From assembly GCF_004010195.1 (NCBI RefSeq), contig NC_057756.1, positions 3,267,824 to 3,328,988 on the forward strand: DNA of 61,165 nucleotides, written 5' to 3'. The notes beneath the pieces were generated by a model, which saw only the letters and a list, made by a program, of their open reading frames with translations, did not search any database and was not told where the DNA came from. The first letter of the stretch is position 1. Each line of letters opens with the position of its first letter. The position numbers and the translations under genes were made by a program. This DNA comes from Chiloscyllium plagiosum. Taxonomy: Eukaryota. Below, one piece after another: positions 2,961 through 54,215 of the stretch.

Positions 2961-4484
2961 GACTTATTTATAAAAAACAAAAAGCGAAAAAATAAGCTTT
3001 TTAAAGTGACAGCATTATCTGAACACAAAATCTACTTTGGAAAACAGCAGTTCCATTTAACGTTCGATATTTCATTTAACATAAACAATGCATACCTACA
3101 CATCCTTTCAATTAGCAAACACTGTTCAAGATTAGTGATTGCAAGCCAAACTTGTCTGTTCTGTTATACAGAATTTTGCAGTAGCAATTAAAAGGCAGAC
3201 ATTTGATATTATTATACCTAAATGACAACAATCTATATTCAGTTGCACTGCTTTCGGAATTTCAGTGACAATCACGGTCAGGAAACGTCATGTAAAGTTG
3301 TTTGCACGTACCAATGTTCTCCCCCACTGAAACGCCATTCACTTGCCTTGCCTTGTCTCGAAGGAAAAGGCGCGCCTCTGCATCTTTTCGAATATAATAA
3401 ATCAAAACTTTACACGTGCAATCTTAGCAGATTTTTTTTTCCTTTCCAGACCATTAACTCTATGGCAGTCCCAATCTATGTTAGGAAAGTTAAAATCCTC
3501 TTCCATTATCATCCTATTATTCTTGTATATAGCTGCGATCAAATTATACATTTTCTTCTCAATTTCCCATTGATTACTCAGCAGTCTGCCACACAATCCT
3601 AATAGAACAAATATGTCTCTCTTTATTTTTCAGTTCTATTCAAATAACTTAAATGGATCATTCTCTGGAATATCCTCCCAAAATACAGCTATCTACTCAA
3701 CACCTTGCTCTTTTGCCACTATTTCTCAAATTCATTGAACATCTGTGCCCTTGAATTTTACTCTGCCAGTCTCGACCATCACTGAACCACGTCTCTTTAA
3801 ACCTTATGATTCCCCAGTCGCATGTTCCCAAAAATACCCTAAATTATTCTGCCTTACAGTCATGCCCCTTGCATAGAAATAAACGCAGTCAAAATTATGA
3901 GTACTAACTCGTTCCCTTCTTTGCACATGCCTGTTTTCACTGTTTAACTTACTCCTTTTCCTAACTGCACCAGGTTCTGACTAATCTATTTTGACCTTAT
4001 CGCTGTGTCTTCAAATGTTCTCCCACTTTTCTACGAGCAGCTCTCGCAAATCTATCCGCCTGTTTCTTCATCCCTTTCCAATTGACGTGCAACCCTGCTT
4101 TGCTTTACAGGTCACTTCCACCTGAAAACATTTTCCAATGGTCCAAAAATGCAAATCTTTCTCCACTGCACCAGCTCTGCAGTGATGCATTCACTTGACC
4201 TGTCCACTGAGGCATCCTTTACCCCAACATCAGGGACACAACACACCTCTCCCACGTCCCAGCATTGGAGAAAGAAACGTCTCTCTCTTCTTCTGACTGG
4301 AGAGTCCCTTACCATAATCGATCATTTGCTACTTGATATGCTACACGTTACTGTAGAACCAGTATCGGTCCAGAAACTTTGCTGTCGGTGTTACATTTTG
4401 CTTATAGTCCGAAAGGAGGCTACTTGCTTGGGTTGGAAATAGCCACTTTAAACTCCTGCATTATCTGGCTTACTCTCCCAGCTG

Positions 4485-13750: not shown

Positions 13751-16700
13751 CCTGGTGAGTGTTGAAATCTGGATCCTTCTCAGACCTTTTATTTAAAGAA
13801 TCTTCTCATTAAAATACTCTGCGGGTTATTCAGTTGTCAACAGTTTTCCATATGTAAGTAGCCTCTATGTAACATACAGCATTCTTTTTTTAAGAAGTCT
13901 GAAGTTCAAATATTCCCCCTCACACTCCACACATTTGGGCAGCTGGTGTAAGGCCCTGCTAACACTTCAGATTACATGTCCTTTATATTGGATTCCACAA
14001 CAAGGAATGGCAGAGACCCAGCTTAAGTTTATAAATAAAACGTGTTAAACGATATGTATGATTTTGTTTCTCAATTGGCATCACTAATAAATGTCATACT
14101 TTTACCGATGTCGAAATTTGAATGGAAATATTCAGTCATGCGAGATGTCAGGCATGTAAAATTGAAACTTTTTTTGAAAGACGAGAATCAAAGAAAAGTC
14201 AGCTTCATAAGTTCATAAAGGACTGATCGCAGTCTGATCCGAGTGAGAATCTAGATCAAGATATGTAGAGGCAGCGATCAGAACAGGTGTGTTTTGCTCA
14301 CTCTATTTTTCCTCTTAGTTTGTAAAAAACTTTTTGGCAGAATAAACTGATGCCTTTGCTCACGTCTCCAACACAAAATAGTTCATTAATTAGTGATCGC
14401 TTCTAATTTAGCTATTTATATTAGGTCACTTGCAGATTAAAATACAAAGAAATACTGTTTTGCAAACAGGGTGACCATAGAGATCTCCCTTTACCAAATG
14501 AGAACAATGTCTAATTGAACAAAAGCGGGACCCAGGGATCGATTACCTTCAGTTAGAACTCATTCGAACGTTTCTGCTTCATGGTGGCAAAGTCTGTAGC
14601 GGGTATTTTTTTTTTTGCTGGAAAAAGTCCTGCCTCAAATTTGCTCAGTGATCATGGACAGGAGGGTTTGACTGCGGGCGAGGCTGGTAAAGGGATCCAC
14701 TACATGCTCTGACACGAACCGGAGTCCTTTAGTTTGTCCACCAGCAGTTTGCCATTCTTGCTTCCTTTGCGTATGAGAGTAGGGGACAGCAGGGAATGTA
14801 TACAATGTTCTCATACAGCGGTGAACACTTCCACAATTTAAATAAACATCCAGAGAAGGTCACCTCGCCTCCTAATCTGTTAAAATATAAGTGACAGAGA
14901 AGTCTCAAAATCTACTAAGTAAACACGTTTTTAAAACAAATTCTTTAACTCGAATAGTGAACATTAATCAACAACTGTTCTCAACTTTAAGCCCCTTTTC
15001 TATGAACTGCTTGTTATTTGCTTCCAAATCTATAACTCTAATTCCAATAAAAAAAAGTATTAAAATCGCGTTAACTTAATTTCAAAATCACAAAGCCGAT
15101 GTCCTCTCTGGTGTCCTTCTTATTTCGGCTGAAGCTCTCGCTGGATCACATTTTGACCTATACTGCAAAGATGTTTCGATAGTGCGTGCTTTGAATGCCA
15201 GTCTGCCTAGATGGCAGTCACTCTCTGTCAATGACAGTTACACTGTCTGACTTTCGAAATGCCTGCTTTTTTTTTCGCCCAAAATCATCTCATTGGTTCG
15301 GGATTGACATAAACAATGCATTCAAATTTGTTTGTGCTTCAGTATCGAGTGGCATAATTTAAATTGATTGGATAAATTGGAAATTGTTGTAAAAAAGCAA
15401 TTAACTCATGCATTTATTTCATAGCCAGATGTTACATATGTTCATTTTTCCAGTACACTCTGTGACTGCAAGTAAGTCACATGACATGTGCTTGCAAACT
15501 GTCAGCACAAATCAACATTCACTCCACCTTCAATATACCAATACGCCATGAACTTCATAACACCTTCTGCTGAAGAAAAAACCAAAACGCATCATAATGA
15601 AATGATGGCTTCTTTCTTTGTAAGTCTGAGCCATTACAATGAAAGGCACAGGGCATTAATCCAAGTTCACGTTAATTTTAGCACACATATCTATAATATT
15701 TCGTATCTATTGTATTTCATCTATACAGCAGTCCTTCGTACCTGCAGGCCATATGCTTGACGATTTCGTGCGGATGACCAAAACCCCAGCTAGTAGTGAA
15801 CAGAAGATAGTAGTGAATTATTAAGTGGCAAATTTGTTTCCCAGCAGGCTCTGGTCCCTGGTTCTGGAATATTCCACGTAATACGCTCGAACTGTGTTAA
15901 CTTGCCATAAACTGAAACTGTGGTAATTGAACTAACTGTTATGGCGGTCGCTCTGTAATTTATCCTTTAAATGCGCGATAATGTATCTTCAATCAGATTT
16001 TTATGACCTACAATATGTACAATTTGTAACTTAAAAGTCTGTAATATAAGAGTCCAAAGAAGTAGTCTCATTTGTTTTCATTAACTCGTTGCAAAAATGT
16101 AACAGGGTTGTGATTCGTGTACACAGGTGTATTAAATACATTAATCATCACACAAATAATAAAATGTTGTCGACCAGTATCAAACTCAATAAAACCTTTT
16201 CAATGGTCGAGTATTTTCTCTGGTCGTTGCTGAGTTTCTTTGGGAAGGCGCCAATGGGCCTTTCACTTCCAAAATTCTCTTCTTGTAGTTGTAAAGCTTG
16301 AGCTCCTATGTCGCTAGCACTGTTTGCTACTTTGAAAGGATTCAAGTATTTTGCTGCAGCTAAAATTTCTGCAGTGTTTAATACGGGTATTCAATTGTCA
16401 TATGCGTCCTGGCATTGCTGTGCTCACTGAAAGTTTGAATTGTTTTCAGAAAATCCGTCAGCATTGCCACTATGCTGCTGGAGTTTGAAACAAACTTCCC
16501 GTAGAATCTGCTTAGTTCGAAAAGTCGAAGCATGTATTTCTTCGATGTTAGTATTAGATATTCATTGATGATCTTCGACTTGGCTTTCATTCAGGTTGGC
16601 TGATGTTATATTCCAAGAACGTCACCTCTGCCTTCGCGAATTTGTTTTTCTTTAAGTTTGCTATCAGTTGTGCTTCTCATAGTCGTTCAAAGAGCTCGGC

Positions 16701-16759
16701 CAAATGTACCCATGTGTTTTGTCGATGAATCACTCAAGAACACTTCATTATCCAAATAG

Positions 16760-18202
16760 AGACATAGAGTCATAGAAATGTGCAGCATGGAAACAGACCC
16801 TTCGGTCCAACCCGTCGATGACGTTCAGATATCACAACACAATCTAGTCCCACTTGCCAGCACCCGGCCCATATCCCTCCAAATCTTTCCAATTCATATA
16901 CCCATCCAAATGCATTTTAAATGTTGAAATAGCCTTCACCACTTCCTTTAGCAGCCCATTCCATAGTTGTACCACCATCTGCGTGAAAATGTTGCCCCTT
17001 AGGTCCCTTTCATACCTTTCCTCTCTCACCCTAAACTATGTCTTCTAGTTCTGTAGTCCCCGACCCCAGGGAAAAAAGACTTTGTCTATCTATCCTCAGT
17101 TTCTCCCCATAGCTCAAATCATCCAACCCTAGCAACATCATTGTAAATCTTTTTTTGATCCCTTTCAAGTTTCACAATATCTTTCCGATAGGAAGGAGAC
17201 TAGAATAGCACGCAATATTCCAACATTGGCCTAACCAACTGTCCTGTACAGCCGCAACATGACGTCCTAATTCTTTTACTCAACACTCTTAGCAATAAAA
17301 TAAAACATACCAAACGCCTACTTCACAAACCTATGGTCCTGCGACTCCACTTTCAAGGAGATAGGAACTTGCAATCCAATGTCTCCTTGTTGAGCAAGTC
17401 TCTAGGACCTTACCATTAATTGTATAAATCCTTCTAAGATTTGCTTTCCCAAAATGCAGCACCTCGCATTTATCTGAATTAAACTCCATCTGCCACTTCT
17501 CGGCCCATTGGCCCATCTGTTGTAATCTAATGTAACCTTCTTCGCTGTCCACTACACCTCCAATTTTGATGTATTCTGCAAACTTACTCTCGATACCGCT
17601 TATGCTTGCATCCAAATCATTTATATAAATGACAAAGCGTTGAGGACCCAGCACCGATCCTTGTGGCACTCCACTGTTCACAGGCCTCCAGTCTAGAAAA
17701 CAACACTCCACCACCAACCTCTGTCTTCTACCTTTGAGCCAGTTCTGTATCCAAATAGTTAGTTCTCCCTCTATTCCGTGAGATGTAACCTTGCTAACCA
17801 GTCTCCCATGTGGGACCTTGCTTAACGCTTTACTGAAGTCCATACAGATCACATTTACCGCTCTGCCTTCATCAATCCCCGACGTTGCTTCTTCAAAAGC
17901 TCAATCACGTTTGTGAGACATGATTTCCCACGCACAAAACCATGCTGACTATCCCTCATCAGTCCATGCCTTTCCAAATACATGTACATATTGCGCCTCA
18001 TGATTGCCTCCAACAACTTTCCCACCACCGACGTCTGGCTCACTGGTCCATTGTTCCGTGATTTATCCTTACTATCCTTCTTAAAGAGTGGCACCACGTT
18101 AGCCAACCTTCAGTCTTTTGGCATTTGTGACTATAAATGATACAAATATCTCAGCAAAGGCTCAACAATTACTTCCCTGGCTTCCCATAGAGTTCTAGGG
18201 TA
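16760..18202 (-). mobile_element. CR1 LINE 3' portion (RT + 3' UTR), left arm of the palindrome
   Basis: ORFs 17855-18106 and 17331-17852: ANVVPLFKK, QHGFVRGKSCLTN, SGVPQGSVLGP, WQMEFNSDKCEVLHFG; (CTATGACT)n-type tail at ~16760. Confidence 0.93.
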
Positions 18203-19645
18203 CACCTAGAACTCTATGGGAAGCCAGGGAAGTAATTGTTGAGCCTTTGCTGAGATATTTGTATCATTTATAGTCACAAATGCCAAAAGACTGAAGGTTG
18301 GCTAACGTGGTGCCACTCTTTAAGAAGGATAGTAAGGATAAATCACGGAACAATGGACCAGTGAGCCAGACGTCGGTGGTGGGAAAGTTGTTGGAGGCAA
18401 TCATGAGGCGCAATATGTACATGTATTTGGAAAGGCATGGACTGATGAGGGATAGTCAGCATGGTTTTGTGCGTGGGAAATCATGTCTCACAAACGTGAT
18501 TGAGCTTTTGAAGAAGCAACGTCGGGGATTGATGAAGGCAGAGCGGTAAATGTGATCTGTATGGACTTCAGTAAAGCGTTAAGCAAGGTCCCACATGGGA
18601 GACTGGTTAGCAAGGTTACATCTCACGGAATAGAGGGAGAACTAACTATTTGGATACAGAACTGGCTCAAAGGTAGAAGACAGAGGTTGGTGGTGGAGTG
18701 TTGTTTTCTAGACTGGAGGCCTGTGAACAGTGGAGTGCCACAAGGATCGGTGCTGGGTCCTCAACGCTTTGTCATTTATATAAATGATTTGGATGCAAGC
18801 ATAAGCGGTATCGAGAGTAAGTTTGCAGAATACATCAAAATTGGAGGTGTAGTGGACAGCGAAGAAGGTTACATTAGATTACAACAGATGGGCCAATGGG
18901 CCGAGAAGTGGCAGATGGAGTTTAATTCAGATAAATGCGAGGTGCTGCATTTTGGGAAAGCAAATCTTAGAAGGATTTATACAATTAATGGTAAGGTCCT
19001 AGAGACTTGCTCAACAAGGAGACATTGGATTGCAAGTTCCTATCTCCTTGAAAGTGGAGTCGCAGGACCATAGGTTTGTGAAGTAGGCGTTTGGTATGTT
19101 TTATTTTATTGCTAAGAGTGTTGAGTAAAAGAATTAGGACGTCATGTTGCGGCTGTACAGGACAGTTGGTTAGGCCAATGTTGGAATATTGCGTGCTATT
19201 CTAGTCTCCTTCCTATCGGAAAGATATTGTGAAACTTGAAAGGGATCAAAAAAAGATTTACAATGATGTTGCTAGGGTTGGATGATTTGAGCTATGGGGA
19301 GAAACTGAGGATAGATAGACAAAGTCTTTTTTCCCTGGGGTCGGGGACTACAGAACTAGAAGACATAGTTTAGGGTGAGAGAGGAAAGGTATGAAAGGGA
19401 CCTAAGGGGCAACATTTTCACGCAGATGGTGGTACAACTATGGAATGGGCTGCTAAAGGAAGTGGTGAAGGCTATTTCAACATTTAAAATGCATTTGGAT
19501 GGGTATATGAATTGGAAAGATTTGGAGGGATATGGGCCGGGTGCTGGCAAGTGGGACTAGATTGTGTTGTGATATCTGAACGTCATCGACGGGTTGGACC
19601 GAAGGGTCTGTTTCCATGCTGCACATTTCTATGACTCTATGTCTC
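18203..19645 (+). mobile_element. Inverted duplicate of the same CR1 3' portion, right arm
   Basis: ORFs 18298-18549, 18552-19073 and 19375-19560 are identical to the left-arm ORFs. Confidence 0.93.
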
Positions 19646-19944
19646 TATTTGGATAATGAAGTGTTCTTGAGTGATTCATCGACAAAACACATGGGTACAT
19701 TTGGCCGAGCTCTTTGAACGACTATGAGAAGCACAACTGATAGCAAACTTAAAGAAAAACAAATTCGCGAAGGCAGAGGTGACGTTCTTGGAATATAACA
19801 TCAGCCAACCTGAATGAAAGCCAAGTCGAAGATCATCAATGAATATCTAATACTAACATCGAAGAAATACATGCTTCGACTTTTCGAACTAAGCAGATTC
19901 TACGGGAAGTTTGTTTCAAACTCCAGCAGCATAGTGGCAATGCT

Positions 19945-20069
19945 AAGCGGGCATTGGATAGGTATGTGGAGGATAGTGGGTTAGTATAGGTTAGGTGGGC
20001 TTGGATCGGCGCAACATCGAGAGCCAAAGGGCCTGTACTGCGCTGTATTCTTCTATGTTCTATGTTCTA
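19945..20069 (+). mobile_element. Short 5'-truncated CR1 3' end with (TTCTATG)n tail
   Basis: ...ggcgcaacatcgagagccaaagggcctgtactgcgctgtattcttctatgttctatgttcta; tail differs from the CR1 in the palindrome arms. Confidence 0.8.
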
Positions 20070-21738
20070 AAATTCTTTCACTTTCTCTGGTGAAGGTACC
20101 TGCCAATAACCACGATTTAAGTAAACGTTTATGACGGAACTGGCTTGTCCGACTTTCTGTCTACAGTCCAACAATCTTGTTATTGGGTATGCGTCAGAAT
20201 TTTTTTACAACGTCGACCTCCTGAGAGTCCACACGAAATCGATAAAACCCATCAGTTGTGTGAATGAACATGATCAATGAAGTCCACTCGCTCTTGCTCA
20301 GTTCAATGATGTCTTCGTTGATCATTGCATTCATTTTCTTCTGGGCCTGTGTGAGTTTGAAAGGATTAAGCCTATACAATCCTTAGTTCTTCTTCACAAT
20401 ATCATTTATCCTCGCCATCTTATTTCTGCATATGTTCTCTTACTACTGTAACCCACGTTTCAACTTTTTGTATTTGCTTTTGAGACAATAGTTCACCAAC
20501 CTAGCAGACTCCTCAAAGATTTCCTCATTGTTTAATATATTTTAAGGTACATCAAACTCCGCAACATCTGGATTTAATTGCTAAGTCTGCAGAGGAGTAA
20601 CGAAGACCTGTTTCTCCAGTTCCTTACCTCCATTTTAATAAGGGGCAACATATTTACAGGATATACGCAATGCAGTACTTTTGCCTATCTGGCACCTTTA
20701 CCAGATAGCTTGCCTAGTACATAGATCATAGAAGAGTACAGCACAGAACAGGCCCACCGATCCACGATGATTGCCGAGGATTATTCCTAATCTAAAATAG
20801 AGTAACCTAAGCTACTCACCCCTCAATTCACTGCTGTCCATGTGCATTTCCAGCAGTCGCTTCAATGTCCCTCATGACTCCGGTTTCCACCACCACCGCT
20901 GGTAAAGCATTCACCAGTTCCTCAACTCTCGGCATAAAGATCCTCCCTTCAATGCCTCCTCTGTACCTTCCTCCTAATATCTTAAAATTATCCCCCTGAT
21001 GCCACTCAGTCCTGCCCTGGGGGAAAGCCTCTCGCTGTTGAACCTAACCATGCCTCTCATTATTTTGTATACCTCCATCAGATCACCTCTCTTCCTTCTC
21101 CTTCTGGAGAGAAAAGTACGATTTTACTCAACCTCTCTTCGTAAGACATATCCTCCAGTTCAGGAAGTGTCCTGGTAAAACTTATTTGCACCCTCTCCAA
21201 ATCTCCTAATCTTTCCTACAATAGGGCGACAAGAAAAGGGCACAATATTCCAAGTGTGGTCTCCTCAGGGTATTGCAGGTCTACGGCAAAACGTTGCAGC
21301 TCTTAAACTCAATCCCTCGTTAATGAAAGTAACAACGCTATTGAATTTCTTTACAACCCTATCCACTTGGGTGGCAACTTCCAGGGATCTATGCACTTGT
21401 CCACCAAGATCCCTCTTTTCCTCCACCCTGTCAAGAATCCTATCTTTAATCCTATATTAAGCATTCAAGTTCTAACTTCCAAAATGCATCACTTCGCTTT
21501 TATCCATTTGAACTCGATCAGCCATTTCTCAGCCCTACCTATGTTAAGTTGCAGCCTGCAATAGTGTTTGATATCATTAAGGACACCTCCAACCTTTTTG
21601 TCATCGGCAATTTTACTAACACATCCCTCAACCTCTTCATCCAAGTCCTTCATAAAAACTCCAAAGAGCAGAGCCCCAAGAGCACAGCCCTGCGGGACAT
21701 CACTCACCAATGACCTCTCGGCAGAGTACATTCCATCT

Positions 21739-21870
21739 GAGCTGAAAATGTGTTGCTGGAAAAGCGCAGCAGGTCAGGCAGCATCCAAGGAACAGGAGTA
21801 TCGACGTTTCGGGCATAAGCCCTTCTTCAGCTCTGATCTCTAGCATCTGCAGCCCTCACTTTCTCCTCGA
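21739..21870. mobile_element. PLE pseudo-LTR fragment with hammerhead motif (type A, 21803-21830 minus) and an inverted second segment
   Basis: Flanked by diverged direct repeat AGAGTACATTCCATCT (21723-21738) / AGAATACATTCAATCT (21871-21886). Confidence 0.75.
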
Positions 21871-22423
21871 AGAATACATTCAATCTACAACTACACTCTG
21901 CCTCTGTCAGCCAACCAATTCTGAATCCAGACAGCCACATATCACTGTATCCCATGCCTCCTGACGCTGTGAATGAGCCTACCATGTGAAACATTATCAA
22001 ATGCCTTACTGAAGTCCATATACACCACATCCACAGCTCTGCCTTCATCGACCTGCCTTCTTACCACCTCAAAGAACTCAGGAAAATTGGTGATGTCTGA
22101 CCTGCCCCTCACAAAGTCATGCTGAGTGCCTTTAATCAGGCTATGCTTTTTCCAAATACTCATAAATCATATCCGTCAGAATACTTTCCAAAGCCTGACT
22201 GACTACAGATATAAGACTGACTGGTCTGTAATTGACAGGGATTTCCTTATTTGCCTTCACGAAAAGAGGAACAACATTCGCTACCCTACAATCCTCCAGT
22301 ACGACTCACGTCGAGAGTGAGGAAGCAAAGATCTTCTCCAGCGGTTTATCATCCTATTTCTCGCTTCCCGAAATAATCTAAGATAAATCTGGTCTGGCCC
22401 GGGGTCCTATCTATCTTATTTCT

Positions 22424-25700: not shown

Positions 25701-27073
25701 TTGCCATGTCTCGACTGTCCAGTCTCCTGCAAATCTTCCCCTTTTCTTGGGGTGTCCTTTACTACTTTCACTGATGCCACTAACTTAGCCTCTTTTACAA
25801 TTGTCCGCCACAGTGCCTTTCTTTAACGACCAAAACTGTGACATAATGTGTTCCACTACAACACAGTAGAAGCACTTGAGGTCTTTCCCCGTTCATTCGC
25901 ACTCGTGGGCTTTTATTTTAAACTATGATAAACTATTGCCAAAGACTGTGATCGCAAATGTACATATTAATCTTCTTTATGCTGCCAGCTGATTCCCTCA
26001 CTTTATGCACTTCGTTCGATCGCATTCCGCTCCAATGCTAATATATGCACGAGGGTCAATCCGTTTTCAATTGTTATACTATTACTTTAATTATTTCGTC
26101 TGTGAACGTGCGCTTTTAGTTTCATTTTCACTGCTGTCTTTTCCTTTATCAATTTCTCACCTTGCATTTGATACTTTTCATCTGCACGAGGTCTGCATCT
26201 CTCTGGCTTGGCAAACTCCCTACCTGTTCGGTCGCTCTCTTTATCTCTTCTCTTTATCTCTTTTTTAAGATCACCGAAGTTTATCTGCAGCATCAGCTCT
26301 CGCTGCTAACTTTCCCAATAGAATTCGAATACACAGAGTGAAGCCACTGATTTCTACAATTTCTAAATTCTCCTTTCCTTTGCCATCTCTCTTTCAACAA
26401 ACTCCAAAGAGTATCTCCATGCGTTACCGTCTCTGTACACTTCCTATTCACATGATGACAATGATTTCGCAGCCACGTACTGGTGGAGAAATCCTCTCCA
26501 GTCAAAGTCTGATGATCTGTCTCTGTTAACGCCAGATTCTTTAACGTGTCTGCTTTGTTTTGCGTTTTTTCTCACTGTGAAACATATACCCACTCCTTCC
26601 AGCACTCACCTAGACCTGCAAAGTTTTGAAAAAATCTGAAATTAGTCAACCAACGTCAGACTATTTTAACATTACATCCTTTCGCCCTACATAGCTCCCA
26701 AATTTTGTTGCATGCCACTGAGAGATATTACTTTCTTTCGCCCATCCTGGTTCACAACTTCTGTTGCCTACCCCTGACAGAAAACAATACATACATCACT
26801 AAAGATACAGCAGAGACACTAAGTGCTCTGTATTTTCGCAATTAATTTATTAATTACACAGAAGCGTTTAACTGCGAGAAGTATGTCAATCATTGCCTTC
26901 CACTGCACCACTTCCACAGCTGGACCCAATAGTTATTCCCAAAGCGAATTGGCAGTGGCCAGGCTGAAACACCTTTTACCTTGGTGACTAAACCTATTGA
27001 TATAGAATGCTTTCTGCAGGATTATTCTGAGAAGGTCTGCAAAACAAAGGAATTCTCTCAGGCTGGTTTTAAA

Positions 27074-27272
27074 CACAGCAGTTCAGGCAGCATCCGAGAA
27101 GCAGTAAAATCGAGGTTACGGATGAAAGCCCTTCATCAGGAATATTCCTGATGAAGGGCTTTTGCCCGAAACTTCGATGGTACAGGTCCTCGGATGCAGC
27201 CTGAACTGCTGTGCTTTTCCAGCACCACTAATCCAGAATCTGGTTTCCACCATCTGCAGTCATTGTTTTGAC
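27074..27272. mobile_element. PLE terminal fragment as an imperfect palindrome with divergent hammerhead motifs (type B)
   Basis: Arms 27074-27143 / 27144-27213 centred on GGAAT|ATTCC; plus strand CTGATGA-a-GGGC-tttt-GCCC-GAAAC-TTC at 27148-27175. Confidence 0.75.
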
Positions 27273-28000: not shown

Positions 28001-28823
28001 AACTGACTGACTCATCAAAATTCACTCATTTAGCACTCATTGTAAAGACGTTTATCGATATTTGTTGTCTTCAATCATATACAACAATCTCCAGGATTAC
28101 ATAAAATAAACCACAGACTGTTGTACGAAATAAGGGAGGAAATAATCCGAAACCGGCAACAATTTCCAGTCTCTATCTGGGCTCATGAGATGTGCTGGAG
28201 GACTGAGGGAGAGCCAAAGTCATAACATTATTTTACAACAAAACAAGGATTATATCGACAATTAGCTCGAGGTTGGTCAAACAATGCTAAATGTTGGGAA
28301 ATTATTGAATGTAATTCAGAAGAATCTCATTAATCAGCGTTTGGTGAGAAGGGGATTGAATAGGAAAATCACCATAGATTTCTGATTTGGAGACCATCCC
28401 TGATAAATTCAAGCATTCATTAAATATTTGTGCAGATGACCAGGTATTCAGCTGACAGTAATATCTTTGGCAAAATCGGCTTCGACTTAGCCTACACTCT
28501 GATAATATTCCAAAAGGAGACTGAAGGTCAAGTTGATGACGTGAATTGGAGGCCTGAGAACAGGGATGCAACACATTAAGTGGTGCTGTGTCCCCTGCTT
28601 TTCCGAGCTCCTATAAAATATTTGGATCTGGATATAGAACGTATGCTTAGTGAATTTGAAGTTGACACCCACATTTGCGTTCCCATGGATGGCGATGAAG
28701 ATTATCCCAGACTACAACAGGTACTTCATAGGGGTATCAAATTATCTATGAAGAGGTCGTTACAGTTTCAGTTAGATAAATATGAGGTGTTGTGGTTCTG
28801 TCGCCGAGCTGGGAATTTGTGTT

Positions 28824-28863
28824 GCAGACGTTTCGTCCCCTGTCTAGGTGACATCCTCAGTGC
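28824..28863 (-). ncRNA. Minimal type-I hammerhead ribozyme motif (type C)
   Basis: GCA-CTGAGGA-t-GTCaCCT-agac-AGGgGAC-GAAAC-GTC-TGC: helix I GCA/TGC, helix II, intact core. Confidence 0.8.
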
Positions 28864-29570
28864 TGGAGAGCCTCCTGTGAAGCGCTTCTGTATTGTTTCC
28901 TTCGGTATTTATAGTGGTTTGTCTCTGCCACTTCCGGTTGTCAGTTCCAGCTGTCCGCTGCAGTGGCCGGTATATTAGGTCCAGGTCGATGTGTTTGTTG
29001 ATAGATTCTCTGGATGAATGCCTTGCCTCTGTGAATTCCCTGGCTGTTCTCTGTTTGGCTTGTCCTATAATAGTAGTGTTGTCCCCGACGAACTCATGTT
29101 GCTTGTCATCCGTGTTTGTGGCTACTAAGGATAGCTGGTCGTGTCGTTTCGTGGCTAGTTGGTGTTCATGCATACGGATCGATAGCTGTCTTCCTGTTTG
29201 TCCTATGTAGTGTTTTGTGCAGTCCTCGGATAAGATTTTGTACACTACGTTGGTTTTGCTCATGCTGGGTATCGGGTCCTTTGTCCATGACACGACCTGC
29301 TATCCTGAATAGCCACAAATGTGGATGACAAGCAACATGACTTCGACCGGGACAACACTACTATTATAGGGCAAGCCAAACAGAGAACAACCAGGGAATT
29401 CCTAGAGGCATGGCACGCATCCACAAATTCTGTCAACAAACACATCGACTTGGACGCAATATACCGGTCACTGCAGCGGACAGCTGGAACTGACAACCAG
29501 AAGCGGCAGAGACAAACCAGTATAAATGCCGGAGGAAACAACACAGGAGCGCTAGACAGGAGGATCCTAA

Positions 29571-29610
29571 GCACTGAGGATGTCACCGAGACAGGGGATG
29601 AAACGTCTGC
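29571..29610 (+). ncRNA. Minimal type-I hammerhead ribozyme motif (type C, second copy)
   Basis: GCA-CTGAGGA-tgtcaccgagacaggggat-GAAAC-GTC-TGC. Confidence 0.75.
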
Positions 29611-32600
29611 AACACAAATTCCCAGATCAGCGAACAGAACCACAACAACGAGCTCCCGAGCTACAAATCTCACAAACTTTGAATAAATATGAGGTGTTGC
29701 ACTTCATTAAGACAGGAATTATACAATTAATCGTTGGGCTCTTGGAAATAATGCGGAACAAAAAGAACTGGGGTGCAGTGAATGCTTCCTTTAAATTGAC
29801 GTTTCAGCGAGACAAGATGGTGAAAAGAGAATTGGCATGTTGTCTTTCAGGAATCAGCTCATTAATTACTGGGGTTTGGACAACTAGTTTTGCCAGTACA
29901 ACACATCAGTGATGTCACTTTAAGATTACTGCGATCAAAGACGTTTGTTTGAAATAAAGACTCGGAAGGGTTCACTAAAATAATGTACAAGCATGTTGCT
30001 AGTAATCTAAAGTGAAAGCTATAAGTAGAGGCTAAGTAGGCTGTGGCATTTTATTACTTTTCTTATAACTTCGGAGTTTTGAGGGGTGATGACGTGGAAG
30101 TTCAAATAATTATGAAGGTCATGGATAGGGTAAATAGACAAGGTATTATTCCCTGTATAACAGGGGTCAAACAAGAGTACATAGATTCAGGTGAGGGGGA
30201 AAAGCTTTGAAAGAGAACTGATGGGCAGTCTTTTCAAGAAGAGAGTGGAGCATGTATAGAACCGTCCGCCAGTGAAGAAGATGGAGGCAGGTGCAATGCA
30301 ACATCTAAAAGGAATCTGAATGGGACGTGTACAGAGAGATACAGTCTAAAAAAGTGACAAATCAGTTTAGATCAGTTTATGATCGGCATGGACAAATTGG
30401 ATGAAAGGATCCATCTCCATGCTGTATAACGCTAAGTATAACTGGCTGATGAACGACAACTTTGAGTGTGACTGGAAGCATGTGACCAGTAATGTTTTGC
30501 AGCGATTCATGCGGCTATCATTCCTTTTGTGTGATTATTAATGACTGAGACATGCATGTAGGAGGAATGATGACTATGTCTCAGCTGGCATACGCATAAA
30601 CGAAATTAGAATGCTAAGTATGAAAGAGGGTGGATTCAAAGAATAAGGGGACATGATTTGATTGATAAGATGGGCCACAAATTGGAAAATTGTTTCAAGC
30701 AGATACGCATGAAGAGCTGCTCTTCAGTAGGGAAAACAAGGGAAATGAATTCATGGAACAGGGAAGCACCAACGATTAGGTGAATATAAAGACGTTGTTA
30801 AGCAAAATGGTACAGGTAACTAAAATAGTATGAAGATGACTGCAATTCAGTTTCGGTACAGCGATTATGAGCAGGACGTTTCTGCTGAAATTGTATGAAA
30901 TATTTCAGAAGGTATTGCTGGTGTTTCATGTGCAATTCTTCAGTCCATACTTTTGGACATTTAAGCAAGGCAAATAGAAATCCAAGCAATGGAGAAGGTG
31001 CACATGAATTTTAACAGATTTTTGGCTGAATCATTTAGTTCTTTATAGCCATATTATACATAGTGATTTTGTTCATTATAGGCGAGGAAGGTTGGGAGCA
31101 GCATGGTTGGGATGCATGCAATTTCGAATGGTAGAGTTAGCGAAGACGGAGCCAAGTTGCGCCGTTGTTAAGGAAGAAATATTTATTGCACAACAGTTAG
31201 TGAAAGTGAAAACATGCTTAGATGAGACACGACTTGAATTTTTCATACAGTGACAGTGTAAATCTGGATGCAATTGGCGTGTCAGTGGTCAAAATTGCAT
31301 TTAATTAACGTGCACTGGTGCTGCAGGGACAACATATTTCCGTGGCCAAAGTGCTGGAAAGGGAATATAGAATATTTACGTGATTGTTTTCTTGGGGAAA
31401 AGTGTATGCACCAGAATGCTTTCCCCCCTCTCTGATCATGTTCACGTTCAAGCCACCAGAAGGTAATCATCCAGATATCTTACAGCAACCGTCAATTAAA
31501 TTCAATAAATTTCGGAATTTTTGGAATTTGTTTTAAATGAAAAGCAGAACAAAAGTTGCATGAATTTCGGGAACATTTGTTTTTAATTACTGTGATCCAA
31601 ATAACTCAATTTCAGATAATAGTAATGCAACTGAAATAAAGAAAAGATGTATATTTTATAAATAAATTTAACTGAAGCTGACTGAATACGATGACATGAC
31701 TTAGAGATTTTGTCAGTTAACCTCTATATTGTGTTGCACCTAAATGGAAATATATGCTTATATTCGTTTTTACACGGAGGTTACACAACAAGAAAGTTAA
31801 TTTAACATTTAACGCATGTTATGCATTTGTAAAGACTAATTATATAATACATGAAATTAATGGCATTTCCTCATCCATGAAATTCCAATACATTTCACTG
31901 ACTTAATTCTTTTTCTCCATTTACAAGAAATTAAAATATTGAGAGCGATAAACGACAGAAGTGGTGAGTGATGTAAAGTATTTTTTGTGTTTTCATGTGA
32001 AAGCGCTGATTTACTTGCAAGTATGTCTACGTGAGTCACCTTCATGTACAAATAAAACGAGTTGCAAAACAAATAAGCAGCATCAAAGGAAAGCTTTCAA
32101 CGTCGTTTGAGAAATAAGTGAAAAAAAAAACAAGAAGGACATCTCCAGAGAGTTTTACTAATGCTTTTGACTCATCATGGAATTTAATCATATGGAGTTC
32201 ATCCTTTGCTGGTCTTCTGCATTACGGATGTGAAAAAGTAAAACATATGACACTAGAAAATTAATGACTAGCAGCAATTATCTTAGATGATCACTAAGTT
32301 TTAAGATGTGAAGAGCTGACTACTGATAATCAATTTTTATTTACAAAACATGAAATAATTAATACAGCAACAGCTTGAAAAATATTCAAATAATTAATTT
32401 TAAAATAGAAAATTGAATCTTCGTTCAAATATGAGTGAGGTAGTCAGCATTCATATTGTAAATCAGGTTTATTTTCAGATCAAAGAATTTTATTGTATTT
32501 CATCTGCAGAACAAAGTATTTAGCAAATGCAATTTTAAAAAGTTATGGGGCATTTAACAATGACTTCACATAACACATCACATGAGGGTATCAAAGTTAG

Positions 32601-44700: not shown

Positions 44701-47700
44701 TGTCATTGATTTTGGCAGACGTGTCATATCTGACAGATATTTTGAGAACCACAAGCTGTAACAAAACCTGCACCTCAAATACCCATTTCTGCATTTGGGA
44801 ACACTTAATTGATTGCATAGGTCTCCTCCCTCAAACATGAGTGGGATTCAATGTATGTTAACAATAATGGATATATTGGCAACATTTCCAGAGGGTGTCC
44901 CATTACGCAATATCACAGCTCAAAAGATCGTAGCGGTACTTACTCAGATATTTGATTTCGTAAGATCTATTAATAGAGGTACGATCAGAGCAAGGTGCAA
45001 ATTTCAGTTCAAAATTATTTAAGAAGATTATGTACTGTTCTGGAACAAAATAATTTAATCTACTGCGTACAATCCACAATTGCAGGGAATGCTAAAGTTG
45101 TCCTTGAAAATTAACAATCACTTTGAGGGCTTATAATTAATACTGTCCAGATGATTCTTGTAAGGGAGTTCCGTTTGTCCTTTCTGCGACCAGAAATTCA
45201 TCAACTTAATCGGCCAAATTCACTCCATTTTAATTAGGTTTTGTGTATGCAGTGAGAGGACAATTAAATTTGATTAAGGATAAAATATTAATTCAGATTT
45301 CACACACCACAGATCTGGAGCTTGTAGAAAATTTTAGGGAACGATTAAATGGAGCTGGGGATGTGGCCAGACAGCATTTTAAAGTATTGCAGCATACAGT
45401 GAAACAGGAAGCCAACAAGAAGCCAAAAATAACAATTAGGATTTTGATGTTACTTCCGTTGATAGATGAAAGTTTAAACACAAGATTTTGTGGACCTGAT
45501 CAAGTTGGAAGAATATTGAGTGAGGTGAACGACTTGATAGGGACTTCCAACAGAATGAAATCTCATAGAGTGTGTCATATGCATATGCTCAAAAAATACT
45601 TTGACAGGGAAGGAAATCAAAAGGAAAATGTTTTATTGATTACAACACAGAGGGAAAAAAAGAAAAATGCTCAGAGAATTCTAAACTACATATTCCTAAA
45701 ATTAAATTGGGCAATGGGAAAGTTGTCAAAATTAGGATCAACGATTGATTTACCTTCACGAGGAAGATCCACATTACCTGATAGAGTTATTACCATCACT
45801 TGGCGAGACATACGGAAATAAGCTGGGATGTATGAATGTAATTATGCATGTTATAGACTTTGGAGATGAGGCTCCGATTAAGTCAGATCCTTACAAGCAG
45901 AACCTTTAACATTGGCATTGGTTCAAAACGAGATCGAATGTATGCTCTATATGCCATTATTGAAGTGAATTGAAGTGACTGGAACAAACCTGATGTAATG
46001 GTGCCAAAATTATTTGCTATCGAACAGCTAGGTGTGGTAATCGTATTGTCAATTGAGTTGCAAAGACTGATGCTTATCTGATTCCCGATTTGGTGGACAG
46101 TATTGAGAAGGCACAGCAAGCAACTTAAATTAACATCAAACTTACTCAGCCACACTGACAGGAAACTTAGTCAGAAAGACCAAAGGCAACTTCGGCTTTT
46201 GTAACGCCGAATGGGCTAAACCAGTTTCGAGTCATGTCGCATGGCATGAAAATTGCAGCAGCGACATTTCAGAGACTACCAAATAAGGTCATTGTCAGTT
46301 TACCCAACTGTGTCATTTATATTGTTGTCCTGATGATTTGTAGTCATACATGGAAGGATCATTTGCAACATTTATCAGACGTATTCGATTGATTTTGAAA
46401 AGCAAGCTTGGTGGTAAAGCTGGCAAAATTTGACCTTTTTCTGAATCCAAGTTACCTCCCTGGGCCATGGTATTTTACACGGAAAAATTGCCCTACACGA
46501 TGCTCAAAGGCAATTGGGAAATTTCACACCATCATCAAAAAGAACAATAAACGGTTCCTGGGATTGAGTAGATTGTTCTAGGAAATTTGTAACAAATTTC
46601 AGCAGTGTGACTGATCCACTCACTGAATTGTTTAAGGAAGGGAAGAGGTCTAAATGGAAAACGGATTGTTAGAAGCCATTTCACAGCCTGAAAGTTGTGA
46701 TAACCACTGCCCCGGTATTAGCCACATCTAATCACGCAAAGCCATTCAAGGTGCATATCAGTGCAAGTGTTGTAGGTGTCAGTGCTGAGGTCTTGCAAGA
46801 AGAGGCAGAGAAGATAGAAGGACCTATCTGGTATTTCTCCAGGACGTTAAACATTCATCAGCAGAAGTATTCAATGATTGAGAAGGAGACTTGAGTTTGG
46901 TGTTGGCTTTACAACATGTCAGCGCATATCTGAGACAATTATATAAACAGATCATCATCCATTGAATTTGTGGAAAAATTTAAGGACAAGAATGCCAGAT
47001 TGTTGAGATGGACCTTGTTGTTACAGTCATTCAATTTAATAATTTTGCATGCAGCAGAACGATACAACGCAATTGCGGACGCAAGGCTTGAGTGAGAAAC
47101 TGAGGCATTAAGTGTGGGAGTACAAGAGACTAAAACAGAATGTAGTTGGTCATATGTGCATGTTTATGACAGTATAATGAGTATCTATGCTTCAGATGAC
47201 TGAAAAGAAATTGACGGGTTTTCAAAGTGAAGCGACATTTGGACAATGACTGGGACAACTGTGAAAAAGCTGTTACTTTAACAAGATTACGTTGTCCTTG
47301 CGTTTGTTTGTTTTTTCAGAGAAGTTATAAACGACATAGATACTGAAAAATCCGAGTTTGGGTGGATTCTAGGTTCAATTTGTTTACAGCTAATAGAGAA
47401 TACTTCAGGTTGAAGGGTTTCAAGCTTTTTAAAAGACTTATATACTGAAAGGGGATTGGCCAATTCTCGCAGCTCAGCTTTATTTGGTTTGGGTTTTTTT
47501 ATGCAGCAGTGTGTTTGTGGGAAGAAAGGCTGCAGGATCGACTCTTTCCCTCTCTCTCTCTCTCTCTCTCTGACTTCATTGCAGGAAGAACTGTGTTTTA
47601 TTTTGCCTTTTGTTCCAAGGGCTGTTTATGGGGATTGTTGCAAGCATTTTGGAACAGCATCATGAATTTGAGATAGTCTATTGAGTTTTCGAATAGGAGA

Positions 47701-50812: not shown

Positions 50813-50829
50813 AGATAGATTGATAGATG

Positions 50830-50908
<79 letters not shown>

Positions 50909-51410: not shown

Positions 51411-51846
51411 CCCCATGGGAGACTGATTAGCAAGGTTAGATCTCACGGAATAGAGGGAGAACTAGCTATTTGGATACAGAACTGGCTCAAAGGTAGAAGA
51501 CAGTGGGTGGTGGTGAAGGGTTGTTTTTTCTGACTGGAGGCCTGCGACCAGTGGAGTGACGTTCGGTGCTGTGTCCTCGATGTTTTGTCATTTACGTAAT
51601 TACTTTGGATATGAGCGTAAGAGGTGATAACAGTCGTGGTACAGTTAGTAATTTTACAGATGACATAAAAATTTGAGTTGTCGTGGTCAGTGAAGACGGC
51701 TATCTCAGATTACAACAGGATGTTGATCGGATGGGCCAATCGTCCGAGAAGTGGCAGATGAAATTTAATTTAGGTAAATGTGAGGTGCTGCATTTTGGGA
51801 AAGCAAATCTTAGCAGGAGTTATACGCTCGAAGAACAAAGAAACCT
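51411..51846 (+). mobile_element. CR1 RT fragment, same subfamily as the palindrome CR1
   Basis: Closely matches 18590-18980; ORF 51683-51892 EDGYLRLQQD...EKWQMKFNLGKCEVLHFGKANL. Confidence 0.9.
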
Positions 51847-54215
51847 TCTCTCATTCATTCAATGTCTCGAGCCCAACACATTCGTTCAATGAATCAAACT
51901 GCATTCTTTCATTCAATGAATCAAACTACACTCAATGATTCAACGAAACAAACAGAACATGTTAATTCAATCAGTAGAGCTTATCTCATTCATTCAATGT
52001 CTTGAGCTTAATGCCTTAATTCAATGAAACAAACAGTATTCATTCATTCATTGAATCTAGCTTCAATCATTCATTCAATGAATCAAATTGCTCGTTATAA
52101 TTGAATGAGCAGAGCTTCTCTCATATATTCCAATGACACGAGCTTAAGACATTTATTTAAACAATCACACTGCATTCTTTCATTCAATGTATCCAACGAA
52201 ATTCATTGATTCAATGAAAAAAGTTAACTCTTTCTCAGAAAGAAACAAACCGCGTCTTTCATTTTATGAAACAAACTTCATTCGTTCATTCAGTGGATCA
52301 AATGTCATTCATTAACTGAATGAAACAAACTGAACTCATTCATTTAATGAATCCAACTGCACTCATTTATGCAATGAAACAAACTGCACGTGGTAATTCA
52401 ATGAATAGATCTTTTCTCATTCATTCCATGAATCAAACTGCCGTCAAAGATTCAATGAAACAAACTGAACGTGCTAATCTAATGAGTAGAGCTTATCTCA
52501 TTCATTCAAATTATTGAGCTTAAAGCCTGCTTTCAATGACACAAACTGAATTCATTCATTGAATCAAACTGCATCATTTATTCACTGTAACAAACTGCAC
52601 ACAATCAGTCAATGAAACAAACAGTATTCATTGAATGAATCTAGCTTAACTCATTCATTCAATGTCTCGAGCTGAACGCCTTCATTCATTGAATCAAACT
52701 GCATTAATTAATTTACTGCATCAAAATGCACTCATTCATTCAATGAAACAAACTGCACGTGGAACTCACTGATTAGAGCTTATCACATCCGTTTAATATC
52801 GTGAGCTTAACCATTCATTCAATGAATGAAACTGCACTCAATCATTCAATGAAACAAACGGTATTCATTCATTGAATCTAGCTTAGCTCATCCATTCAAT
52901 GGCTTGAGCTTAACCAACGAGCTTAACTGAACGTTATAATTCAATGAGAAGAGCTTATCTCATTCATTCCAATGACTCGAGCTTAAGTCATTCATTCTTC
53001 AATCAAGATACATTCCTTCATCCAATGAATCAAACGATATTCATTGATTCGATGAAAAAAAGTTAACTCATACATAAAACGAATCAAACTGCATTCATTC
53101 ATTTCGTTCAATCATTCATTCAATCGTTCATTCTTTGGATCAAATATTATTCATTCACATAATGAAACACATTGAACTCATTCATTTAATGAATCTAAGT
53201 GCACTCATTTGTTCAATGAAATAAACTGCACGTGTTAATTCAATGAATAGAGCTTTTCTCATTCATTCTTTGAATCAAAGAGCACTCAACGATTCAATCA
53301 AACGAACTGAACCTGGTATTTTAATGAGTAGAGCTTATCTCATACATTCAATGTCTCGAGCTTCACGCCTTCATTCAATGTAACAAACTGCATTCATTCT
53401 TTGAAACAAACTGCATTAATTCATTTGCTGTACCAAACTGCACTCATTCATTCAATGAAACAAACTGCACATGTAAATTCACTAATTTAGAGCTTACCTC
53501 ATTTATTCTATACCTCGAGCTGAACGTATTCATTCAATGAAACAAACTGCATTCATTCATTGTAACTAACGTCAATCTTTCATTCAATGTATCAAACGTT
53601 ACACATTAATTCAATGAAACAAACTTAACTCAATCATTCAATGAATGAAACTGCATTACCTCCTTCAATGAATGAACCTGCACACAACCATTCAATGAAA
53701 CAAACTGTATCATTTCATTCACTGAATCTAGCTTATCGCATTCCTTCAATGTCTCGAGGTTAACGCCTTCATTCAATGAAACAAACTGCATTCTTTCATT
53801 CAATGACACAAAGTGCACGTGGTAATTCAATAAATAGAGCTTTTCTCATTCATTCCATGAATCAAACTGCCCTCAATGATTCAATGAAACAAACTGAACG
53901 TTAATTCAATGAGTAGAGCCTATCTCATTCATTCAGTGTATCGAGCTTAACGCCTTCTTTCAAGCCTACATTCATTCATTTAATCAAACTGCATCATTCA
54001 TTCATTGTAACAAACTGCACACAATCATTCAATGAAACAAAGTAAAAAGGTCAGTTCAATATGTAGAGCTTATCTCATTCACTCAATGTCTCGAGCTTAA
54101 CGTCTTCATTCAATATAACAAACTGTATTCATTCATTTGTGGAATCTAACTTAAATCATTCATTCAATGAATCACACGTTATACATTGATTCAATGAAAC
54201 AATGTATAACTCATG
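51847..54215 (+). repeat. Degenerate TTCA-rich satellite (~23-27-bp units) with a partial ~840-bp higher-order repeat
   Basis: Recurrent TGCAyTCATTCATTCAATGAAACAAAC and GAGCTTATCTCATTCATTCAATG units; landmarks CGTTATAAT at 52093/52932 and GTTAACTC at 52223/53062. Confidence 0.9.

Follow-up and report, generated by a model that had tools for sequence, protein, structure and literature searches.

We find that the window (the whole stretch of DNA analysed here, 61,165 nucleotides) contains, in its assembled sequence, a perfect palindrome with arms of 1740 bp around a 5-nt loop, and that this looks like a rearrangement of a known kind: a DNA-repair scar of very recent date, or else a mistake of the assembly. 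On balance, the evidence tips slightly towards a rare, young and real allele, a reading that takes in a one-step origin driven by the adjoining CR1 insertion (CR1b). The narrower reading that we prefer, namely a real, very recent and rare repair scar made of an inverted duplication with an adjacent deletion and without function, has in our estimation just under an even chance of being correct. Nothing points to a function or a gene-silencing role, and we see no case for either.

Structure of the palindrome

The features of the locus are as follows.

15950..16756, minus strand: decayed Gypsy-type pol, downstream part (C-terminal part of RT to RNase H), in frames with many stops; 16460-16756 lie within the left arm
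16460..18199, no strand: left arm, the original copy; it joins the left flank without a break, the Gypsy frame crossing 16459/16460
16757..18205, minus strand: CR1a, an old, decayed CR1-type LINE (3' half of ORF2, 3' UTR and short tandem tail), from RVT_1 and tblastn matches
18200..18204, no strand: loop GTACA, native CR1a sequence, with a probable 1-3 bp of inverted microhomology at 18205-18207
18205..19944, no strand: right arm, the inverted copy (CR1a at 18205-19647, Gypsy at 19648-19944)
19944..19945, no strand: right junction, where the end of the copied arm is joined to CR1b with 1 bp of common sequence
19945..20068, plus strand: CR1b, 124 bp from the 3' end of a second CR1-type LINE, of very high copy number, with a TTCTATG tail; alignable with further CR1 3' ends of the window
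20069..20700, minus strand: decayed Gypsy-type pol, upstream part (N-terminal part of RT up to YWQVP), from its frames

The palindrome exists in the assembled sequence as a preliminary description had it, with 1740-bp arms at 16460-18199 and 18205-19944, a 5-nt spacer (GTACA) at 18200-18204, and base pairing that stops at 16459/19945. That description had called the arms identical and suggested aligning one with the other; they prove to be 100% complementary, and zero mismatches over 1740 bp place their divergence at no more than 0.17% (95% bound). In each arm, CR1-type sequence takes up about 1443 bp and Gypsy-type pol about 297 bp, close to the 1440 and 300 bp given earlier. Since no other perfect inverted repeat in the window (spacers up to 50 nt considered) has arms longer than 19 bp, a chance origin is excluded. 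The window holds no N letters anywhere, and the junction sequences at 19944/19945 show no N, no insertion and no target-site duplication.

Elements composing the locus

CR1a sits inserted within the Gypsy pol and is truncated at the fold point. Its left-arm copy (16757-18199) matches the RVT_1 profile (E=2.3e-14), and a tblastn match with P0035 runs from 18205 to 16868 and covers residues 453-934 of ORF2 in a homologue of 936 aa, the element being cut at about ORF2 residue 453. The identity of the arms within so decayed a CR1 supports the earlier suggestion that the duplication is much younger than the element, and the internal deletion previously noted in the CR1 agrees with family contigs, which have additional letters at 18885, as expected from a short deletion. 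The further copy reported at 51411 was confirmed, although its identity is just 79% across 420 columns and reaches 93% in the best 117 bp, and 35 of the 1424 CR1a arm 21-mers are found elsewhere in the window. The CR1 family itself is very abundant, with 95%-alike contigs summing to a depth of 10^4 to 10^6 over CR1 bins. CR1b is probably young and possibly polymorphic between alleles; summed contig depth over its bins is 2.5-7.7 x 10^5, its letter at 19966 differs from nearly all family depth, and that at 20022 differs from 94-98% of it.

Just outside the left arm, at 16151-16390, the Gypsy relic gives a Pfam match to RT_RNaseH_2 (E=2.7e-10), and its downstream part (15950..16756) shares 55.7% DNA identity over 553 columns with a second Gypsy-type copy at 46521-47050. 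Some 42 codons (~126 bp) expected between the upstream part and 16756 are absent, whereas in the second copy the corresponding interval (46192-46317) is 42 codons long, and a motif search in six frames did not find the missing piece near the locus. This loss of 42 pol codons relative to the second copy, together with the shortening of CR1a, constitutes a deletion adjacent to the inverted duplication, and would have come with the fold-back event itself. The resumption of Gypsy pol at about 20069-20700, the CR1b tail at 19945-20068 and the deleted sequence were all absent from the preliminary description.

Fold point and proposed origin

The GTACA loop reads as native CR1 ORF2 when followed from the left arm: the minus strand across it gives VYPRTLWEARE and the plus strand GTPRTLW, and CR1 homologues have DKSPGPDx-[IV][YF]PR at the corresponding place. 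The inverted copy consequently adjoins the original with a non-duplicated native spacer, as in fold-back duplications. We place the inverted microhomology at the fold at 1-3 bp, a range that depends on the native codon before the V/I residue; among the homologues bearing the motif (46/120), this residue is G in 24, E in 18, D in 2, and R and A in 1 each. A search for the CR1-family DNA pattern at the fold gave 0 matches in metagenome contigs, and a comparison of the Gypsy piece with a phage collection likewise gave none, an uninformative outcome. An adapter or filler at the loop is ruled out by the native ORF2 frame across it. Intrastrand fold-back priming, suggested in the preliminary description, is supported by this native loop, which we count, with the clean fold point, in favour of a real fold-back event.

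The starting locus was one Gypsy relic bearing CR1a (minus strand) and then, about 126 bp on, CR1b (plus strand), from which the stretch between the fold point at 18207 and 19945 has been lost, with an exact inverted copy of 16460-18199 in its place. Under the repair-scar reading, a break or stalled fork would bare a 3' end within CR1a, which may then fold onto itself about the 5-nt loop, held by 1-3 bp of inverted microhomology, be extended by 1740 nt with its own strand as template, and be end-joined, through a single shared base pair, to the opposite end lying in CR1b. That the arm spans two nested and unrelated elements points to copying at the DNA level. Two further origins were ruled out: a Penelope-type fold-back insertion, by this same span, and a homology-mediated join between CR1a and CR1b, by the arm running 297 bp into Gypsy before the switch. 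The allele is probably private or rare, and heterozygous, and it should be short-lived because such palindromes break. A 5-nt spacer in yeast is reported to allow break formation almost as a perfect palindrome does (PMC8053094), a comparison by which the fragile site previously proposed here is reasonable, but only if the allele is real.

Similar rearrangements are known from other systems. In yeast, one end of a break can be extended by fold-back synthesis while its partner is end-joined, the insertions being mostly of 5-34 bp (Yu et al. 2024, PMC11724301), and human inv-dup-del fold-backs are described (Hermetz et al. 2014, PMC3907307) as having 2-8 bp of inverted microhomology and, in the germ line, spacers of 766-70,466 bp. 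The present locus resembles the fold-back duplications of these reports in its native loop, probable short inverted microhomology, self-templated copy, homology-free end capture and adjacent deletion. However, it differs from the local foldback inversions reported in yeast in the length of its copy (1740 bp against mostly 5-34 bp), and from the human cases, which are far larger and involve a dicentric intermediate, in its local resolution and in its 5-nt loop, the latter a point against a real allele. If real, it would represent a freshly formed and highly unstable palindrome in a vertebrate germ line, and a kilobase-scale fold-back repair with a minimal loop that would be useful for tracking the decay of such structures; if an artefact, it is a misassembly hiding at least ~126 bp and portions of two LINEs.

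Contigs and depth in other samples

Contigs and reads from 4 of the 24 listed runs (DNA runs X1, X2 and X5, and RNA run X21) were compared with 18150-22150, which covers one arm, the loop and the right flank; runs of organisms B and C (shares 0.06-0.10) were left out. The window's own 31-mer graph must branch at the outer end of the arm. In X1, record 6 has 788 nt at depth 8.5 and matches 19763-19944; in X2, record 13 has 789 nt at depth 9.35 and matches 19762-19944. Both continue for 606 letters beyond 19944 that are unlike the window from 19945 on, passing the outer end of the arm unbranched and with no entry to the right flank, while X5 has no listed piece there. Given that the required branch is missing in X1 and X2, the palindrome is probably not fixed in the species. 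Moreover, X1 is identical to the window at 1284/1284 letters (5 exact pieces) and carries the CR1b-Gypsy junction, its record 7 being exact over 20047-20841 and unbranched at 20069, so that a near-identical haplotype seemingly exists without the right junction. There is no bridge over either junction among the 24 pieces listed (187,720 others), loose ends at the loop do not figure among the 24 listed either (1513 others), and family contigs of X2 and X5 start matching at 19944, with other letters before it.

That an artefact is a serious alternative, as was originally cautioned, is borne out by these contigs of two DNA samples, and we give it a substantial probability, if one that falls noticeably short of even. 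A fold-back read from library preparation would have entered a contig and been joined onward where the assembly broke within the high-copy CR1b, with the arms equalised by polishing or consensus; the true locus would then comprise one arm, the remaining CR1a, a longer CR1b and the Gypsy piece now missing. Fold-backs are reported to make up ~0.55-0.6% of ONT genomic reads, often to be adapter-free and probably to arise during library preparation (Heinz, Meyerson, Li 2026, PMC12870357). The window shares with them a near-perfect palindrome, an adapter-free turn and absence from other data, and an artefact is further favoured by arms without any difference and by a second junction lying in a young, very high-copy repeat, where contigs would tend to break. 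However, artefact reads of this kind are described as palindromic about their middle and ending there, whereas the window continues gap-free into downstream DNA: the right junction resumes nearby, in the same Gypsy relic and in the correct orientation, with no N and no usable homology, which neither a palindromic read nor an overlap error would readily explain. The same report describes virtually no fold-back reads in PacBio HiFi data, a point that bears on the window only if it was built from HiFi reads. Also weighing against an artefact, Logan contigs are described as coming from a graph simplified with SPAdes-like heuristics, with rare variants dropped (10.1101/2024.07.30.605881), and X1 has depth holes at 19067, 20998 and 21149; short single-copy paths between very high-copy nodes nevertheless survived in X1 (records 1, 2 and 5), so the junction link need not have been pruned.

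Arm depth lies overall between 1x and 1.5x in the three DNA runs, with no bridging piece among those listed. A rough depth model, which leaves out likely paralogues (X1 records 3, 4 and 8; X2 records 9-12 and 14; X5 records 17, 18, 20-22 and 24), prefers a 1.5x arm dose over 1x in X1 (1.5-2.6 fold) and X5 (2.3-6 fold), a point against an artefact, whereas depth in X2 favours 1x. The model speaks against a homozygous 2x dose, as an artefact would predict, with values of 0.16-0.35 for X1 (on all five pieces), 0.015-0.23 for X2 and 0.2-0.56 for X5, but without the two pieces nearest the loop this no longer holds in X1 (0.9-1.2). We counted for a real allele the 1.5x preference in X1 and X5, together with a remainder of depth 3.7 in X1 (all minus other) whose letter at 19966, at a distance of 22 bp from the junction, is not that of the family; counted against it were the unbranched X1 and X2 contigs, the want of a bridging piece among those listed, and the X2 depth. 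An argument from single-copy depth to an artefact was dropped, X1 record 6 fitting a doubled arm (1.2 x 7.1 = 8.5) equally well. In X2, one contig of depth 11.9 lacks 1 nt at 18189 and is listed without a counterpart on the other arm, at 18215; it is compatible with both readings and was left uncounted.

The same data make it highly doubtful that the palindrome is old and common, its arms being held identical by arm-to-arm gene conversion. This hypothesis could accommodate identical arms in an old element, and also a letter unlike the window's that X5 carries at 19067, where it has the full depth of 23 on an arm contig whose flank reaches only 16.9, were both arms to have changed together. It fits poorly with the unbranched X1 and X2 contigs and with the depth model, which speaks against a 2x dose in X1, X2 and X5 alike once every piece used is included, and conversion is unlikely to remain perfect right up to the 5-nt loop and to both outer ends.

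A possible LINE-coupled origin in one step

The CR1b insertion may alternatively have caused the palindrome, a reading that we regard as improbable: target-primed reverse transcription at 20068/20069, yielding a 5'-truncated CR1b of 124 bp, would have been accompanied by resection of the reciprocal end, which folded in CR1a and was copied over 1740 nt before its ligation to the end of the cDNA. L1 sites are reported with small-hairpin inverted duplications formed on 2-bp homology (10.1101/2024.12.14.628481), and the layout here equals that of L1 insertions with a reciprocal-end inverted duplication, having a LINE 3' end on one side (tail at 20068), a small-hairpin duplication on the other (remodelled end at 19945) and a near-blunt join. 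CR1b is short, with an intact tail and no target-site duplication, and one X2 contig begins precisely at 20069, the first base beyond that tail, as would be expected if a CR1b-less allele exists. However, the published L1 cases, as described, retain a target-site duplication, whereas here there is none between the two breakpoints and at least ~126 bp have been lost instead. This origin also predicts the palindrome on every CR1b allele, yet contigs suggest CR1b without the duplication: X1 has CR1b and no branch at 19944 (contigs can lose a low-depth link), and X2, if heterozygous for CR1b, likewise has it without the branch, at 1x depth and with a non-window letter at 19861 at full depth. The departures of CR1b from its family at 19966 and 20022 weigh against it too. 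Correspondingly, we think it improbable that a CR1 insertion has made a heritable kilobase palindrome in a cartilaginous-fish-like genome, comparable to human L1 in cell clones and tumours; were CR1b causal, LINE-induced end remodelling would reach from L1 to CR1. No paper on CR1 retrotransposition with inverted duplication in a shark was found in the part of the literature covered.

RNA reads and the silencing hypothesis

The preliminary description also proposed a hairpin-RNA silencing locus, which did not find support. Perfect 1.74-kb arms would yield long dsRNA if read through, the CR1 family is very abundant, and family RNA reads are present in X21. Against this, X21 read depth is 0 at the locus-specific stretches 19758-19891 and 20160-20829, a result of low power (~2% of one single-cell poly(A) run, blind to small RNAs, from a sample that may be a non-carrier), and 688 of 691 reads fit partially only, 98% continuing into other sequence. 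None of the 24 listed runs is labelled as small RNA. No host-gene domain, and no flanking gene for read-through, was found in the 196 of 244 open frames of at least 62 aa that were scanned (short exons would escape). Moreover, the palindrome is probably not fixed among samples, its arm is a decayed copy with few recurring 21-mers (35/1424), and RNAi from long dsRNA is described as constrained outside oocytes in mammals (PMC11239679). A functional locus silencing the CR1 family in trans is consequently very hard to credit, and a transcribed palindrome allele acting as a nascent 'CR1 killer' harder still. The likeness to maize Mu killer lies in the inverted duplication of transposon coding sequence; there, read-through from a flanking gene, an active target and silencing in trans are described (PMC3440606), whereas here the duplicated copy is decayed.

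Structure of the palindrome and its surrounding elements

The 3.5-kb palindrome of the preliminary description was recovered exactly, with 1740-bp arms at 16460-18199 and 18205-19944, and alignment of arm against arm yields 0 mismatches on either side of the spacer GTACA, giving an upper bound on arm divergence of 0.17%. The window is rich in repeats and contains no N; its next-longest perfect inverted repeat has arms of only 19 bp. Despite the identity of the arms, the elements within them carry many stops and frameshifts. The relevant elements are:

16151-16390, minus strand: Gypsy RNase H domain (Pfam RT_RNaseH_2, E=2.7e-10)
From 16756 on into the RNase H, minus strand: downstream part of a decayed Gypsy-type pol (from frames)
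16757-18205, minus strand: CR1a, an old decayed CR1-type LINE (covers residues 453-934 of ORF2 in a 936-aa homologue, along with the 3' end)
19945-20068, plus strand: CR1b, the 124-bp 3' end of another CR1-type LINE, tail at 20068
~20700 to 20069, minus strand: upstream part of the decayed Gypsy-type pol (from frames), which stops after a YWQVP motif
45234-47080, plus strand: second decayed Gypsy-type pol (RVT_1 and RNase H matches)

CR1a, its inverted copy and CR1b are all sited between the two Gypsy pol halves. The second Gypsy-type copy (~56% DNA identity to the first) served solely to gauge what is missing from the first; 42 codons (46192-46317) separate the equivalent positions there, and hence ~126 bp of pol are absent at the palindrome. 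Some CR1 homologues with a named source are from cartilaginous fishes. Three close homologues of the vertebrate-type CR1 RT (P0001, P0036 and P0040; 76%, 63% and 57% identity) bear bacterial names and lie on contigs of 1.6-3 kb; these are probably host DNA within bacterial assemblies.

The loop (18200-18204) continues the native ORF2 frame when entered from the left arm (VYPRTLWEARE; homologue motif DKSPGPDx-[IV][YF]PR) but not when entered from the right, which marks the left arm together with the loop as the original sequence and the right arm as the copy. The fold point has 1-3 bp of inverted microhomology, given as a range because the residue preceding the motif varies among the 46 of 120 homologues that have it (G in 24, E in 18, D in 2, R in 1 and A in 1). 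At the right junction (19944/19945), contigs of the CR1b family begin to match at 19944, and so 1 bp is common to both sides. What the assembly shows is an inverted duplication flanked by a deletion, and since the arm covers two nested elements, copying took place at the DNA level.

Possible fold-back repair or assembly artefact

The best-supported single account, to which we would give slightly less than an even chance, is fold-back repair. A 3' end within CR1a would have snapped back with a 5-nt loop, been extended by 1740 nt using its own strand as template, and then been end-joined within CR1b with loss of the intervening sequence. The two junctions and the sequence loss are present in the assembly; that a break began the process, which enzymes acted and in what order, we infer. 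Fold-back synthesis at one end and end-joining at the other are described in yeast (PMC11724301), and 13 human fold-back junctions are listed with 2-8 bp of inverted microhomology, although the spacers there are at least 766 bp, in contrast to 5 nt here (PMC3907307). In the structural features compared, the assembled palindrome resembles such fold-back inverted duplications and, if real, would be a further case of an already known rearrangement type. A limited literature search for CR1 retrotransposition with inverted duplication in a shark found none.

That the palindrome might be a fragile site, as initially proposed, is reasonable, if the allele is real, by analogy with yeast, where a palindrome with a 5-bp spacer is reported to break nearly as often as a perfect one (PMC8053094). 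Such an allele would consequently be expected to persist only briefly and at low frequency; this agrees with its absence from X2, and perhaps from X1, two of three DNA samples (X1, X2 and X5, from two studies, of 24 runs listed) whose Logan contigs were compared with 18150-22150.

A 31-mer graph of the window itself makes a branch obligatory at the arm's outer end. Contigs from X1 (788 nt, depth 8.5, exact) and X2 (789 nt, depth 9.35, one difference) instead match to 19944 and continue with 606 letters unlike the right flank, which we infer to be the left flank; among the pieces listed, X5 has no comparable arm-end contig. In X1, five exact pieces equal the window at 1284/1284 letters and the CR1b-Gypsy junction (20047-20841) is present, and these together with the arm-end contig indicate that a haplotype near-identical to the window appears without the right junction. 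No piece bridging either junction occurs among the 24 listed; there are at least 187,720 further pieces and 1513 loose ends (the X1 and X5 counts being partial). SPAdes-like assemblers can prune short low-depth links beside high-depth nodes. X1 retains short single-copy paths of 134, 76 and 97 nt inside very high-copy CR1, and its depth is zero at 19067, 20998 and 21149. At 19966, a depth of 3.7 in X1 is left over once the family letter is discounted (16 in X2 and 168 in X5), and the X1 remainder may come from a junction piece, from a bubble or from a paralogue. Logan contigs are simplified by SPAdes-like heuristics (10.1101/2024.07.30.605881).

These unbranched contigs agree with a fold-back read built into the assembly, a substantial possibility that we hold at rather below an even chance, as do the identical arms and the position of the right junction inside a young, high-copy repeat. 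Fold-backs are put at ~0.55-0.6% of ONT genomic reads, often without adapter sequence, and are described as virtually absent from HiFi (PMC12870357). However, an artefact explains poorly why, with neither gap nor homology at the join, the sequence passes back into the correctly oriented DNA just downstream.

Arm depth was assessed with a rough dose model assuming read length and using the locus-like pieces among those listed (X1 5/8, X2 3/8, X5 2/8), the remainder being omitted as likely paralogues. Likelihoods for 1x : 1.5x : 2x were 1 : 1.5-2.2 : 0.16-0.35 in X1 (1 : 1.6-2.6 : 0.9-1.2 minus the two loop-nearest pieces), 1 : 0.15-0.5 : 0.015-0.23 in X2 and 1 : 2.3-6 : 0.2-0.56 in X5. Modelled depth therefore leans against a fixed palindrome; as to heterozygosity for it in X1, the model is neutral or slightly in favour.

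Alternatively, the insertion of CR1b may itself have triggered the fold-back in one step. Small-hairpin inverted duplications with 2-bp homology adjoining L1 insertions offer the closest published layout (10.1101/2024.12.14.628481), but this model requires CR1b and the palindrome always to occur together, which is contradicted by X1 and probably by X2, and we consider it improbable. LINE-coupled rearrangement was not adopted as a class for the palindrome. The X2 flank contig starts precisely at 20069, the first base beyond the CR1b tail, whereas X1 continues into the tail; this one contig end suggests that an allele without CR1b exists in X2, and the insertion is perhaps polymorphic.

Proposed hairpin-RNA silencing

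The proposal that the palindrome silences CR1 through hairpin RNA, in the manner of Mu killer, is very unlikely in our estimation. Mu killer depends on transcripts that read through into it out of a neighbouring gene, and the element it silences is an active one (PMC3440606). The supposed CR1 target is indeed a very abundant family for which RNA reads exist, yet the arm is itself a decayed copy, and only 35/1424 of its 21-mers recur elsewhere within the window. So abundant a family probably already yields much dsRNA, and in mammals, if not necessarily in sharks, Dicer is stated to constrain long-dsRNA RNAi outside oocytes (PMC11239679). In X21, a single-cell poly(A) run sampled at ~2% (low power, blind to small RNAs), 691 reads were placed on 18150-22150, 688 of them only partial fits, with depth 0 at the Gypsy bins 19758-19891 and 20160-20829. 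Pfam was run on 196 of 244 open frames that reach 62 aa, and its sole matches above cut-off were RT and RNase H, hence no flanking host-gene domain; short exons would escape such a scan, and the palindrome may thus be intronic. The silencing claim is consequently not upheld, and a Mu-killer-type locus was not adopted as a class.

Other repeats in the window

An imperfect inverted repeat at 28788-29647 (345-bp arms, 88%, 143-bp spacer) looks like a Penelope-type inverted insertion; a frame in its arm has a weak GIY-YIG match (E=0.034, under cut-off). A short spacer-less fold-back at 27071-27216 (73-bp arms, 84%) is built from a repeat found again at 4480, 21735, 37964 and 60317. The CR1 copy at 51411-51825 directly precedes a decayed 27-bp tandem array (51765-54202; ~77 copies in the main block, 60% matches). 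Finally, the segment 40974-41092 contains an exactly duplicated 35-bp unit beside an (AAG)21 run, and an (AGAT)24 run occupies 50813-50908.
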